Shown here piece after piece: positions 55,488 to 59,654 of a DNA stretch of 64,000 nucleotides. The notes beneath the pieces were generated by a model. That model was not told where the DNA came from, made no database searches, and worked only from the letters and a program-made list of their open reading frames with translations. The translations under genes and the position numbers were made by a program. Source of the stretch: Alphaproteobacteria bacterium. Lineage in GTDB: Bacteria > Pseudomonadota > Alphaproteobacteria > RF32 > CAG-239. The stretch covers positions 998-64,997 of the forward strand of contig SUUK01000005.1 in assembly GCA_015062535.1 (NCBI GenBank), written 5' to 3'. The number at the start of each line of letters is the position of its first letter. Position 1 is the stretch's first letter.

Positions 55488-57443
55488 TTAAGCTATTTTT
55501 GAAAATAGTTTTTGTTTACTAATAATATCTTGTTTGGTTAGGCTTGATTTTAAGAATGGAGATGTTTCTATTAAATCAAGCGGAGTGCCGTCGCTTTCTA
55601 TTTGGCCATCTTTTATTACTATCACCCTATCTGCAAGAGCTATTTCTGTTGGATTGTGTGTTACAAGTAACACTGTTTTATTTTTTGCTTTTTCTTTTAG
55701 GGTTTTCATAATCTTAAAGCTTAACACTTGATCTAAACCAGTGGTTGGCTCATCTAATATCATTATTGGTCTATTGATTAAGAATATACGAGCAAGAGCT
55801 AAACGTTGACGTTGACCTCCTGATAGTGCGCGTCCGTCTTGTCCTATCCTATGGAATAAACCTTCTTTGAAGTTAGAAATATCTTCTGTAAGACCTGCAG
55901 AATCGAGAGCTTTATTTAATTCCTCAATACTTGCATTTTCTTTGAAATACTTTAAGTTATAGAGCAATGTTTGGTCAAAGAAGTGAACGTTTTGGTCAAC
56001 AAAGGCTATTTGTTTATTAATTTCTTCATCTTTTAAGGTTGTTAAATCCTTATTGCCTAATTTTATTAGACCTGATGTTAGCTCGTAGTCGTGACGAATT
56101 AAGCTCATCAAAGTTGTTTTACCCTCGCCTGATGTGCCGGCAATAACAGTTATTTTGCCAGAGTTAATTGTGGTTGAAATGCCTTTTATTACATCATTTC
56201 CACGTTCAACATCTTCTTTTTCTGCACCAAAGGTTGTTATATCTTTGATTTTTGGATAGGAAAAACGAACATCTTTTAAGGTTATAGTATTATCTTTTGT
56301 GGTTAGTTTTTGAGGACCTGTTTTTCGCTCTAGTGCAAGTGGGGTGTGCAATAATTTACTTGCATCTAAATAATTATTGCGTGCCTCTAATATATTTATA
56401 TATGTATAAGCATAACTTCTAAACCTCATCCTTATACTATTTGTTGCTGTGGCAATTAAAGAAAAACGACCGATATCTCCTGTTTCTATTATATCACGTA
56501 TTGCGAAAACACAAACTATTGAAGAAAACAACAAATCTGAAATTATTCTTAAAGTAGATTCATTCATTATTTTTAGATTAAATTCTTTTATTAGCACTTT
56601 AAATACTTTGTTATTACGACTTAAAATATTTTTATATTCTTTATTTTGCGATAAAGCGTCTTGAATAAGAGGAGAATTTTGCAATGTATCTCTATTTTGT
56701 TTATCGGTATGTGATTTTATTATTTGATTTTTTTGCATCACTACTCTTTTTATTTTTTGCATATATGATGATATTTCTATGTATAATATAGAAATAAAGG
56801 TAAATAGAACAACAAATTTTGCTGAAATAAAAAACAAACTAAACAATGCCATAAATGCAATAATAAATTCTCTAGTCACAGCTATTATATCTCTTAATAT
56901 GTTAGATATAGCTGTATTTAATCGTGATGAGATAGATGATAGTGTCGCAGGATTGTTTATTGTAAAAAATGCTCTGGGTTTATTTACAATGTTTATGTAA
57001 TTTGAAGCAAGATTGGTAGAAAGCACTGCTTCATTTAATTTTTGTTGATTATAAAATAATTTGGCTAAAAGAAATTCACCTAAAAAATCTCTTAACTTGC
57101 GTATAGAATAACATAATATAAAAATTAGTATTGCGCTTTTGCTACCTGTGGCAACGGCAGGTAACGCATTATATACAAGCATAGACGCTACGGGAATCAA
57201 TCCTTCTGCAACTCCTGACAAAAAACTTGTTAAAATATATTTATGAAAAATTGATTTGCATTGTGGTGATATTTCTTTATATGATTTTATAACTAATGAA
57301 AAAGATGATATTTCTTTGTCATCATCTTTTACATTTATTCTTTTTAAAAAGTTATAAAGTTTTATAATTCTCTCTTTCTCAAACTTTAAAAAACCTATAA
57401 AATTGTTTTTAGAGTTTAATTTTGATGATTTTGTGTGTGGCAT
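55488..57443 (-). CDS. ABC exporter, fused TMD-NBD (paralog A)
   Basis: N-terminal half has about 6 TM helices. The C-terminal NBD carries GTSGEGKTT, LSGGQRQR, ILDEPT and the H-loop. Its 3' ~850 bp is about 95% identical to paralog B. Confidence 0.85.
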   Translation of the reverse strand: MPHTKSSKLNSKNNFIGFLKFEKERIIKLYNFLKRINVKDDDKEISSFSLVIKSYKEISPQCKSIFHKYILTSFLSGVAEGLIPVASMLVYNALPAVATGSKSAILIFILCYSIRKLRDFLGEFLLAKLFYNQQKLNEAVLSTNLASNYINIVNKPRAFFTINNPATLSSISSRLNTAISNILRDIIAVTREFIIAFMALFSLFFISAKFVVLFTFISILYIEISSYMQKIKRVVMQKNQIIKSHTDKQNRDTLQNSPLIQDALSQNKEYKNILSRNNKVFKVLIKEFNLKIMNESTLRIISDLLFSSIVCVFAIRDIIETGDIGRFSLIATATNSIRMRFRSYAYTYINILEARNNYLDASKLLHTPLALERKTGPQKLTTKDNTITLKDVRFSYPKIKDITTFGAEKEDVERGNDVIKGISTTINSGKITVIAGTSGEGKTTLMSLIRHDYELTSGLIKLGNKDLTTLKDEEINKQIAFVDQNVHFFDQTLLYNLKYFKENASIEELNKALDSAGLTEDISNFKEGLFHRIGQDGRALSGGQRQRLALARIFLINRPIMILDEPTTGLDQVLSFKIMKTLKEKAKNKTVLLVTHNPTEIALADRVIVIKDGQIESDGTPLDLIETSPFLKSSLTKQDIISKQKLFSKIA

Positions 57444-57564
57444 AAAAATCCTTCCGTGAATTAGGGGTTAGCTAGCTAACAAAAACATAAGGCTTATTTT
57501 ATATAATATTTGGGATTATAAATTTATGTGTAGTCACTTTTTAATCTATCTATCTGATATTATA

Positions 57565-57670
57565 CAATAATTATTTTTGCATTTTTGTCTAATTGTTTGC
57601 TTGACTTTTTAATTGAACACTATATAATAAGTGTATCAAGAGGAGATAACTTCTCTTTTTTTTATTTTAA
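57565..57670. promoter_or_regulatory. conserved ~105-bp element, copy 1 (plus-strand TTGACT-16-TATAAT at 57601..57628, then hairpin caagaggag/cttctctt + T7)
   Basis: About 85% identical to 59822..59928. The consensus promoter faces opposite to the ABC genes and is followed within 10 nt by a terminator-like hairpin. Confidence 0.6.
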
Positions 57671-57700
57671 AAGGCCCAAGAAACATCTTGAGCCTTTTTT
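57669..57700 (-). terminator. terminator of ABC paralog B (ggcccaag/cttgagcc stem with A/T flanks)
   Basis: Hairpin immediately 3' of the stop at 57702. Confidence 0.6.
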
Positions 57701-57701
57701 G

Positions 57702-59654
57702 TTAAGCTATTTTTGAAAATAGTTTTTGTTTGCTAATGATATCTTGTTTGGTTAGGCTTGATTTTAAGAATGGTGATGTTTCTATTAAATCAAGCGGTGT
57801 GCCGTCGCTTTCTATTTGGCCATCTTTTATTACTATCACCCTATCTGCAAGAGCTATTTCTGTTGGATTGTGTGTTACGAGTAACACTGTTTTATTTTTT
57901 GCTTTTTCTTTTAGGGTTTTCATAATCTTAAAGCTTAACACTTGGTCTAAACCAGTGGTTGGCTCATCTAATATCATGATTGGTCTATTGATTAAGAATA
58001 TACGAGCAAGAGCTAAACGTTGACGCTGACCACCTGATAATGCACATCCATCTTGACCTATTCTATGGTGTAAACCATCTTTTAGATTAGAAATATCTTC
58101 TGTTAGACCTGCAGAATCTAAAGCTTTATTTAATTCCTCAATACTTGCATTTTCTTTGAAATACTTTAAGTTATAGAGCAATGTTTGGTCAAAGAAGTGA
58201 ACGTTTTGGTCAACAAAAGCTATTTGTTTATTTATTTCTTCATCTTTTAAGGTTGTTAAATCCTTATTACCCAATTTTATCTTCCCTGCTGTTAAGTCAT
58301 AATCGTGACGGATTAGGCTCATTAGGGTTGTTTTTCCCTCCCCTGATGTGCCGGCTATTACTGTTATTTCACCAGAGTTAATTGTGGTTGAGATGCCTTT
58401 TATTACATTATTTCCACGTTCAATATTTTCTTTCTCACAAACTAAAGTTGTTACGTCTTTGATTTTTGGATATGAAAAGTGAATATCTTTTAAGGTTATA
58501 GCATTATCTTTTGATGTTAGTTTTTTAGAACCTGTTTTTCGCTCTAGCGCATGAGGGGTTACTAATTGCTTTTGGGTATCAACTATTTCATTACGATAGT
58601 CTAAAATATATTTTTTATACCACTGGATTAGCTGATAACTGCGCCATCTAAAAACAGAAGTTGCACTATAAATCAAAGCAAAACGACCAATCTCTTTTGT
58701 TTCTATAACATCGTTTAAGGCAATAATAGCAATAAATATTGCTAAAATCATATTTAAAATAAATGAAGATATATTGTTTATTTTATACTCAGCAAAAAGA
58801 ACTTTTAGAGAAATTTTAGTGTCTTTCGCCATTCTGGCTTTCATATTTTTTTCTTCTTGTTCTATTTTTATAGCATCTTGAGCAATAAAAGAATTAGCCA
58901 TTATATCTCTATTTGTTTGGCTTACTTTTATTTTAATAAGACGTTGCTTGTTTTGCCAATTTCTTAGTAAATAAGTGGCATAACCTCTAAACTCCATATA
59001 AAATAGACAAGATATTAGTGTAATGAAAAACAATTTTGGAGATACTGCTAGCACACTTGTTCCTGTTATGAAAAGTATAATTATACCCATGAACTCATCT
59101 AGTACGTCTCCTAAAAGATTTATTTTTTGGTTTGTAATTTTTTCTACCATTCCATTTAGTGATGCAGAAGAATTTACCTTAAAAAATGGGCGGGGTTTGT
59201 TTATGATTTCTACAAAACCTCTTGTTTGTTCTTTTTCATGATATTTATAACTTATTTTCCATCTAAAATAGTATCTAAGATTATTAAATACTGGCTCTAA
59301 CATTTTTGTAATGCTCAATAATGCCCAAAATACAATAAATGTTGTTATTGCATTAGGTGTATCTGATATTAGTGGAGGAAGGGCATTAAATACCAGCATC
59401 TCCATATAAGGTGTTATACCTTCTAATATTGCAGATATTGCCCCTATTGCAAACATTAAGTATACGTTCTTTTTACAGATAGAATCCATATCCTTATATA
59501 TTTGAAAAGCTAAAATAAATGGATTTATATCTTTTAGGGTGTTGGGTTTTATCCCTTTTGCAAAATTAATTATATTTTTTATATTTTGTTTTTCGTAAGC
59601 AAAAAAACTTAATGGTCGCTCATGAGAATGTGCTGACTTTTTAATATCAGTCAT
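57702..59654 (-). CDS. ABC exporter, fused TMD-NBD (paralog B)
   Basis: Same architecture as A. The N-terminal about 330 aa are only roughly 30% identical to A; the C-terminal about 285 aa are near-identical. Confidence 0.85.
   Translation of the reverse strand: MTDIKKSAHSHERPLSFFAYEKQNIKNIINFAKGIKPNTLKDINPFILAFQIYKDMDSICKKNVYLMFAIGAISAILEGITPYMEMLVFNALPPLISDTPNAITTFIVFWALLSITKMLEPVFNNLRYYFRWKISYKYHEKEQTRGFVEIINKPRPFFKVNSSASLNGMVEKITNQKINLLGDVLDEFMGIIILFITGTSVLAVSPKLFFITLISCLFYMEFRGYATYLLRNWQNKQRLIKIKVSQTNRDIMANSFIAQDAIKIEQEEKNMKARMAKDTKISLKVLFAEYKINNISSFILNMILAIFIAIIALNDVIETKEIGRFALIYSATSVFRWRSYQLIQWYKKYILDYRNEIVDTQKQLVTPHALERKTGSKKLTSKDNAITLKDIHFSYPKIKDVTTLVCEKENIERGNNVIKGISTTINSGEITVIAGTSGEGKTTLMSLIRHDYDLTAGKIKLGNKDLTTLKDEEINKQIAFVDQNVHFFDQTLLYNLKYFKENASIEELNKALDSAGLTEDISNLKDGLHHRIGQDGCALSGGQRQRLALARIFLINRPIMILDEPTTGLDQVLSFKIMKTLKEKAKNKTVLLVTHNPTEIALADRVIVIKDGQIESDGTPLDLIETSPFLKSSLTKQDIISKQKLFSKIA

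Follow-up and report, generated by a model that had tools for sequence, protein, structure and literature searches.

We analyzed a 64,000-nucleotide (nt) stretch of contig SUUK01000005.1 (positions 998 to 64,997 of the forward strand, here called the window) from the Alphaproteobacteria bacterium assembly GCA_015062535.1 and found that two adjacent genes, g1 (57702 to 59654, minus strand) and g2 (55488 to 57443, minus strand), encode half-size ATP-binding cassette (ABC) exporters of 650 and 651 amino acids (aa) whose membrane and ATPase halves have had different histories. A sequence-only reading by a model had described the two as tandem exporter paralogs, and this is borne out: both open reading frames (ORFs) are intact and on the same strand, with g2 carrying a transmembrane domain (TMD) of another class than that of g1. 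Its proposal that the halves encoding the nucleotide-binding domains (NBDs) have undergone segmental gene conversion is now strongly supported, by a breakpoint, a drop in synonymous divergence, a mosaic of synonymous differences, conflicting trees, and an exchange that is younger than a strain split. On balance, we consider it likely (probability of about 0.7) that these are two functional exporters with membrane domains of old, separate classes, that their NBD halves have been converted repeatedly, and that both probably act as homodimers.

In an alignment of the two genes with their flanks, nucleotide identity was about 50% over the 5' 1.1 kb and 80 to 100% per 60-nt block in the 3' part, so the divergence along the pair changes abruptly and is not uniform. 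Maximum chi-square analysis placed the breakpoint at codon 366 of g1 and codon 367 of g2 (window positions 58559 and 56345), which is the junction between TMD and NBD, with a chi-square value of 389 compared to at most 13.5 in 300 permutations. The 5' halves, which encode the TMDs, are 49% identical in nucleotides and 29% in aa, in agreement with the roughly 30% protein identity first estimated. The homogenized block comprises NBD codons 366 to 650, the stop codon, and 15 bp beyond it, at 57687 to 58559 for the g1 copy and 55473 to 56345 for the g2 copy (both minus strand); the similarity does run past the stop codons, as had been stated, and is lost after those 15 bp. The high-identity block lies where the sequence-only reading put it, over the last 850 bp or so, with an identity below the 95% given there: the 3' 855 bp contain 74 differences (91.3% identity), and a value of 96% is limited to the last 300 nt. 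Identity of the two proteins over about their last 200 residues was likewise overstated, as the last 113 residues are identical and there are 4 substitutions in the last 192, with 93% aa identity over the NBD halves. By the Nei-Gojobori method, synonymous divergence (dS) is 1.2 (saturated) and nonsynonymous divergence (dN) 0.78 in the 5' part, and these values are 0.31 and 0.04, respectively, in the 3' part.

Such a pattern could in principle arise without recombination if the NBD were merely under stronger purifying selection than the TMD, and across the family the NBD is always the better conserved part (85 to 89% aa identity between orthologs, compared to 66 to 83% for the TMD). However, synonymous divergence falls about fourfold at a sharp boundary, to a proportion of synonymous differences (pS) of 0.08 to 0.10 in the tracts described below, the similarity extends into noncoding sequence beyond the stop codon, and the NBD tree contradicts the TMD tree with 97 to 100% bootstrap support. 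The synonymous-site and tree results refute selection as the sole cause, and we assign it a very small probability.

Comparison with orthologs resolved the homogenized block into tracts of different age. The loci L084 and L088, from related genomes, encode orthologs whose TMDs are 97% identical to those of g1 and g2, respectively. Over codons 366 to 462, pS is 0.40 between g1 and g2, 0.19 between g1 and L084, and 0.08 between g2 and L088. The corresponding values are 0.08, 0.71, and 0.44 over codons 463 to 511, 0.48, 0.22, and 0.17 over codons 512 to 543, and 0.10, 0.50, and 0.41 over codons 544 to 650. The most recent conversion tract thus comprises g1 codons 544 to 650 and the 15 bp after the gene (57687 to 58025, minus strand; g2 counterpart, 55473 to 55811), with no nonsynonymous differences (pN of 0), and a second recent tract comprises g1 codons 463 to 511 (58122 to 58268, minus strand; g2 counterpart, 55908 to 56054). 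Between them lies an unconverted patch (g1 codons 512 to 543, 58026 to 58121, minus strand; g2 counterpart, 55812 to 55907) in which sites group by orthology, g1 with L084 and g2 with L088, and which holds all 4 of the aa differences in the last 192 residues. The pattern is reciprocal, in that L084 and L088 have diverged from g1 and g2 exactly where g1 resembles g2. Four-taxon site patterns gave the same picture, with 19 sites in the 3' part at which g1 equals g2 and L084 equals L088, and orthologous grouping in the 5' part of the NBD and at 58040 to 58109. The mosaic rests on this reciprocal ortholog pattern because clustering of third-position differences within the NBD, scored as the longest identical run, was not significant by itself (P = 0.10).

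A closely related strain, represented by L091, dates part of this exchange. Over 5.2 kb, L091 is collinear with the window at 97.5% identity. In g1, the window differs from L091 at 16 of 1,095 TMD sites and at 33 of 855 NBD sites, and at 23 of those 33 NBD sites window g1 has the same base as window g2. The 23 sites cluster mainly at 57708 to 57957, inside the most recent tract, and at 58197 to 58214, with one at 58513. This indicates that at least one exchange involving the paralog is younger than the split from the L091 strain.

We also considered whether the tandem might be a chimera of two strains with alternative alleles, created during assembly. Short-read assemblies of relatives do end at this repeat: the L091 contig, an independent case of g1 with the 5' half of g2 behind it, stops 45 bp short of the repeat, and L001 and L085 end just after the gene. 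Nevertheless, the exact g2 protein is encoded on 21 contigs, which come from different samples and range from 50 kb to 1 Mb, and two independent assemblies, L103 (JGI 3300022753) and L104 (ENA ERZ27248370), have 0 mismatches to the window over the 4,667-bp tandem, including all 74 NBD differences. Moreover, the g1-g2 junction is unique sequence that also occurs in L091, and some of the 74 differences match each gene's own ortholog. Agreement between independent assemblies thus shows that the tandem is genuine, and we regard the chance of an artefact as negligible.

To compare the histories of the two domains, as the sequence-only reading had suggested, we built neighbor-joining trees with bootstrap support from a codon alignment of 11 genes, separately for the TMD and the NBD. 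The trees conflict, in that TMDs group by type and NBDs do not. In the TMD tree, the g1-types (g1, L084, L083, L001, and L089) are separated from the g2-types (g2, L088, L090, and L081) with 100% bootstrap support, and the distant L086 and L002 fall between them, which implies that the two TMD classes predate those genera. In the NBD tree, L086 and L002 lie far outside, g1, g2, and L088 form a group (97%), and the g1-types L001 and L089 group with the g2-type L090 (100%). Exchange is therefore also seen outside the window: L001 and L090 have a pS of 0.00 to 0.11 over codons 463 to 650 and of 0.61 in the TMD. A third case involves L093, which has a third TMD class (P0011, 47% aa identity to g2), since the g1-type L084 is 89 to 98% identical to L093 in a segment of the NBD and merely 69% identical to g1 there. 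In this family, then, NBDs are generally exchanged between TMD classes.

These observations bear on a rival account, in which lateral exchange of alleles does most of the work: TMD cassettes would be swapped between strains with a conserved upstream element (described below) and the NBD as homology arms, the tandem would have come from insertion of a second allele unit, and conversion within a genome would be secondary. The g1, g2, and P0011 TMD classes do alternate at the same site, and NBD dS between near-identical TMD orthologs is 0.32 to 0.53, compared to 0.06 for their TMDs. The repeat unit is a whole transcription unit that abuts the previous hairpin, and DprA is encoded in the window. 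The affinities of L090 are also in conflict, as its infC fragment (L090 positions 1 to 333, aligned to window positions 63460 to 63792) is 95.5% identical to the window, yet in the exporter NBD its identity is 92% to L001 and L089 and just 79 to 80% to g1 and g2. It appears that the flanks do not travel with the exporter locus when it moves from one background to another. On the other hand, g1 and g2 share tracts that are absent in the 97.5%-identical L091, for which exchange between the paralogs is the simplest explanation. We regard lateral exchange as the main process as possible, with a lower probability than the reading that we prefer. The two processes are not mutually exclusive, and exchange between strains probably contributes alongside intragenomic conversion.

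The sequence-only reading had interpreted the pair as a heterodimeric exporter with NBDs kept identical by conversion, and here our conclusion differs. An obligate heterodimer would be one pump with two membrane halves, in which selection favors conversion that keeps the ATPase domains identical. In favor of this, the two genes are neighbors of equal size on one strand, many assemblies have the tandem in stable and identical form, and near-identical NBDs with conserved coupling helices make a mixed dimer sterically plausible. However, relatives do not keep both partners at the syntenic site, which we defined as the position between a 460-aa gene (with or without a GNAT gene) and a convergent aldolase gene. 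A g1-type gene occurs there alone in L083 (followed by an inserted restriction-modification system), L084 (followed by a 207-aa ORF), and L089, and a g2-type or P0011-class gene occurs alone in L081, L090, and L093, with the L090 contig stopping 10 bp past the gene. NBD exchange is also seen in these genes that have no tandem partner at the locus. In addition, most non-homodimeric ABC exporters have one degenerate ATP site, a frequent and not universal feature (PMC7756269), whereas all catalytic motifs of g1 and g2 are consensus and identical in the two proteins. Finally, 258 bp lie between the genes, and this spacer contains a hairpin and the whole of a second upstream element, including promoter-like sites. 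The single-type loci imply that each type can work alone, presumably as a homodimer. It is most likely, as judged from these sequence comparisons, that each gene is self-sufficient and that its product would form a homodimer with its own substrate preference; a mixed g1/g2 dimer would be possible and optional, and an obligate heterodimer we hold to be unlikely.

Several points weigh against reading g1 and g2 as independent exporters homogenized within one genome. The single-type evidence covers syntenic loci, so a second copy elsewhere in those genomes is possible. Several of the relatives are short contigs, and since the L001 contig breaks off 28 nt inside a second upstream element, this locus may be another tandem. 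The weak T run of the hairpin after g1 makes it a weak terminator, a point in favor of the heterodimer, and leaves cotranscription of g1 and g2 possible. The flanking genes give no clear organismal lineages, as the infC and NBD affinities of L090 illustrate, and exchange with other strains, not strictly within one genome, may account for part of the NBD similarity.

Each gene has its own upstream element, ribosome-binding site, and post-stop hairpin, an arrangement consistent with separate transcription of g1 and g2. The terminator-like hairpin after the g1 stop codon (57673 to 57694, minus strand), read from the sequence, has a short T run that falls below the threshold of the scanner that we used; the hairpin is kept after the g1-type genes in L083 and L001. 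The one after g2 (55459 to 55482, minus strand) is common to the convergent aldolase gene. The upstream element is about 110 nt long, and the window holds two copies and no more, at 59819 to 59927 before g1 (copy 1) and at 57564 to 57671 before g2 (copy 2), both on the minus strand and 78% identical to each other. It is 72 to 89% conserved in nucleotides before every family gene examined, including those of the distant L086 and L002, and is also found before the ABC gene in L081, L083, L084, L089, and L090; between distant genera, it is better conserved than the coding sequence. A metagenome scan with a pattern for the element returned 9 loci, one of which carries the family (L095, on the same contig as L081).

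The best promoter-like sites of the element face away from the exporters. In copy 1, the plus strand has a TTGACT-16-TATAAT match at 59859 to 59886 followed by a hairpin and T run at 59896 to 59917, and the minus strand has a weak TAGACA-16-TATTGT match. In copy 2, a promoter-like site on the plus strand (57601 to 57628) is followed by a hairpin at 57638 to 57657. These two plus-strand TTGACT-16-TATAAT sites, opposite to the ABC genes, are the best sigma-70 matches in the region, and each reaches its hairpin and T run within about 10 nt. The hairpins are more stable as plus-strand RNA, in which G-U pairs are used, with folding energies of −8.9 and −13.9 kcal/mol compared to −5.0 and −7.4 kcal/mol for the other strand. 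This layout predicts either a plus-strand RNA of about 30 nt, at 57635 to 57667 and 59893 to 59925, or divergent promoters placed back to back. Searches against Rfam of the whole window, with a sensitive scan of 57400 to 60000, returned no match for the element or the leaders, and both 5' leaders fold no better than shuffled sequences. By eye, the g1-type 5' leader (59655 to 59818), which contains the hairpin GCCCAAATAATCGGGC at 59704 to 59719, looked highly conserved in comparison with L083, L084, L089, and even L001, with its merely 70% identity in the TMD coding sequence.

The two proteins are half-size type IV (ABCB-like) exporters. The order of parts in g1 is N-terminal cytoplasmic helices, six transmembrane (TM) helices, the NBD, and a C-terminal helix. 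Pfam ABC_tran was matched with E values of 1.7e-29 for g1 and 6e-28 for g2, while ABC_membrane (PF00664, gathering score of 28 bits) was matched weakly by g1 (26.5 bits) and not by g2. The TMD sequence is highly divergent though its fold is retained: a family profile aligns near full length to MsbA, Sav1866, and the halves of pgp-1, including the TMDs of pgp-1 and MsbA, and an AlphaFold2 model of g1 (mean predicted local distance difference test score [pLDDT] of 72, with TMD blocks mostly at 80 to 93) has six long TM helices, at residues 58 to 90, 100 to 152, 163 to 204, 206 to 254, 261 to 319, and 322 to 364. With this model, Foldseek returned HlyB, MsbA, Sav1866, McjD, the PCAT1 core, TM287/288, and BmrCD at a probability of 1.00, and the alignments to the first four span about 600 columns.

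We found that both NBDs contain the full set of ATPase motifs (Walker A, Q-loop, signature, Walker B, D-loop, and H-loop) in consensus and identical form, including GTSGEGKTT (Walker A), Q483, LSGGQ, IMILDEPT, and H595. The coupling helices, at which the NBD docks, have the motifs NKPRxFF and NS...QDA, and these stand out as conserved in both of the otherwise 29%-identical TMD classes, which suggests that one NBD could fit either membrane domain. The ratio of dN to dS (dN/dS) for the TMD is 0.13 to 0.33 among orthologs, and about 0.2 to 0.3 for the g2 orthologs L088, L081, and L090. Both TMDs are thus under purifying selection and neither gene is a pseudogene.

The g1/g2 family is an orphan, clade-restricted family of type IV exporters. 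Its roughly 32 cluster representatives come without exception from uncultured Alphaproteobacteria of the gut or rumen, and bit scores fall from 464 to 202 at its edge. No family cutoff in NCBIfam was reached by g1 or g2: the MsbA lipid A flippase models gave 188 to 191 bits (TIGR02203, cutoff of 602) and 164 to 168 bits (NF008381, cutoff of 867), and the HlyB, PrtD, and LssB models for type I secretion gave 128 to 181 bits against cutoffs of 510 to 725. A PADLOC scan found merely generic ABC-ATPase similarity for the exporters. When genome contigs were scanned with the family alignment, most of what was returned was generic ABC NBDs; the relevant loci were L001 and L002.

In comparison with MsbA, Sav1866, and McjD, the family has three extra segments, namely about 55 aa at the N terminus (two short helices in the AlphaFold2 model), 14 aa inserted after the A-loop, and about 25 aa that form a C-terminal helix. 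The insertion separates NBD strand beta2 from strand beta1, at whose end the A-loop Tyr395 is found, and is part of a family-specific loop at g1 residues 397 to 416 (58407 to 58466, minus strand) and g2 residues 398 to 417 (56193 to 56252, minus strand). An NBD insertion of about 18 aa had been noted beforehand, and both of the strings quoted for it are present; its length is 14 residues, as taken from the alignment gap to ABCB-type NBDs (those of pgp-1 and ABCB19). The flanks KIKDVT and IERGE are kept across the family and the center is variable, and AlphaFold2 models residues 398 to 413 as a low-confidence loop (pLDDT of <50).

The constant neighbor of these exporters, on their upstream side, is the 460-aa gene (59963 to 61345, minus strand), which adjoins the ABC gene in the window, L001, L081, L084, L086, L090, and L091, with a remnant in L002. 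Its product has a subtilisin fold without a canonical catalytic triad (AlphaFold2 pLDDT of 90.6; Foldseek matches to subtilases at about 5e-8 to 2.5e-6), and its family, with distant matches to Peptidase_S8, is confined to the same clade as the exporters. In this family, the Asp, His, and Ser triad positions are not conserved (the window protein has Asn at the Asp position); the residues that never vary are H210 and C244. The N-terminal domain is helical. By the model and the alignment, the protein could be a pseudo-protease or have a retooled active site. It has no signal peptide, and PADLOC returned nothing for it. NCBIfam gave no match for the 460-aa, 291-aa, or 87-aa ORFs.

We confirmed for the window that an HlyD-type adaptor and a C39 domain are absent, with no HlyD family among the 47 ORFs scanned across the 64 kb and no C39 (PF03412) match in the N termini of g1 and g2. 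A TolC-like OEP gene lies 6 kb from the exporters (48103 to 49500), and GNAT genes flank the exporter in several relatives and not in the window. The search for a substrate among neighboring genes, which the sequence-only reading had also proposed, was run, and no neighbor identifies one. A lanthipeptide- or microcin-type export cluster, in which the subtilase, exporter, and GNAT genes would belong together, was considered and rejected, since neither precursor nor modification genes were found and the subtilase-fold protein has no triad.

Some other features of the region differ between strains. A 1.9-kb segment at 61565 to 63462, with genes for a Zeta-toxin family protein (61582 to 62478, minus strand) and a PHP-domain protein (62525 to 63409, plus strand), is absent in L091 and L092, contigs of the 97.5%-identical strain, where infC abuts the 460-aa gene, and is a strain-specific insertion. 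In relatives, there is an insertion hot spot a few bases after the exporter stop codon, the position at which the window has g2: a GmrSD/HNH gene and an EcoRI-type methylase follow in L083 (2934 to 5258), the 207-aa ORF follows in L084 (9430 to 10507), with a 38-bp copy of the 3' end of the aldolase gene in front of it, and about 1 kb with small ORFs follows in L088 (2088 to 3153). Between a tRNA gene (53752 to 53836) and the aldolase gene, the window has an 87-aa ORF without a family match (54004 to 54267), and a gene of 72 to 88 aa is kept at this position in L081, L083, L084, L103, and L104. Farther away, there are five consecutive ankyrin-repeat protein genes (148 to 7064), and L091 has a VirD4/TraG-type coupling protein, which suggests a host-associated, effector-secreting lifestyle. 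An Rfam match just above the gathering score at 18766 to 18865 (n00280, a Clostridioides difficile small RNA described as "included into helicase gene") lies inside a UvrD-type helicase ORF (16944 to 19343) and is probably conserved coding sequence and not a small RNA.

The sequence of events that best fits these data would be as follows. The two TMD classes, older than the split from the related genera, would be too divergent (49% nucleotide identity) for recombination, while the ATPase-coding halves would have stayed alike enough for homologous recombination, and conversion between the tandem copies would rewrite them repeatedly, a short patch at a time; in relatives, alleles of different TMD class would exchange them likewise. 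The boundary of homogenization would then lie at the TMD/NBD junction because the TMD halves are too divergent and the NBD halves still recombine. A more far-reaching proposal, which we think rather improbable, is that the locus is a modular allele-swapping system, in which the shared ATPase module and the strongly conserved upstream element serve as fixed recombination arms and several ancient, mutually incompatible TMD cassettes circulate among strains of host-associated Alphaproteobacteria. Each strain would thereby gain its own specificity for export or immunity, in connection with the GNAT genes and the constantly linked subtilisin-fold protein that lacks a triad. If so, the upstream element, in which an antisense consensus promoter leads directly to a terminator, would represent a novel form of regulation for these genes.

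Under the reading that we prefer, the pair is an unusually clean natural case of domain-limited concerted evolution in which the process and the protein class are already known; it is no new type of system, and it addresses no long-standing question. It would mean that one ATPase module is interchangeable among membrane domains of about 30% identity, which implies that the interface between NBD and coupling helices is the sole part needing constancy. It also accounts for the breaks at this locus in short-read assemblies of these uncultured gut Alphaproteobacteria, and it draws attention to an exporter family, restricted to one clade, that has kept its NBD insertion, its upstream element, and an invariably linked partner protein.

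Among known exporters, the homodimeric half-transporters MsbA, Sav1866, and McjD resemble g1 and g2 in having six TM helices and a consensus NBD on one polypeptide; profile and fold matches to them cover nearly the whole protein, and a single gene suffices in relatives, as it does for them. The differences are the scores below the NCBIfam cutoffs, the extra segments, and the clade restriction. The heterodimeric exporters TM287/288, BmrCD, EfrCD, and TmrAB likewise have two adjacent same-strand half-transporter genes with different TMDs, and the g1 fold matches these structures. Heterodimeric exporter pairs usually have distinct NBDs, however, whereas the ATP sites of g1 and g2 are consensus and near-identical, the two genes are 258 bp apart, each with its own upstream element, and relatives keep one of them. 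Exporters for type I secretion (HlyB/PrtD) or for peptides (NisT with NisP) that have a subtilase nearby are resembled in the TolC-like gene 6 kb away, the constant subtilisin-fold neighbor, and the HlyB and PCAT1 core among the top fold matches. In contrast to those systems, no C39 or C39-like domain, HlyD adaptor, precursor peptide, or modification gene was found in the window, the subtilase-fold neighbor lacks a triad and a signal peptide, and scores for type I secretion models are below their cutoffs; the missing N-terminal C39 peptidase domain also sets g1 and g2 apart from the peptidase-containing bacteriocin exporters (PCATs). CFTR NBD1 carries a regulatory insertion between its first two beta strands, after the A-loop aromatic residue, and the g1/g2 insertion is a flexible extra segment at the analogous position. 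It is far shorter (14 aa), shows no sign of phosphorylation or regulation, and belongs to an unrelated lineage. Searches of the literature available to us returned no direct precedent for NBD-limited conversion between bacterial ABC paralogs. A parallel to the process is the concerted evolution of tufA and tufB in Salmonella, which are kept alike by RecA-type exchange. As with g1 and g2, paralogs of the same genome cluster together rather than with their orthologs, but conversion in g1 and g2 is limited to one domain-coding half and ends at a domain junction, and exchange of this type also takes place between alternative alleles in different strains.

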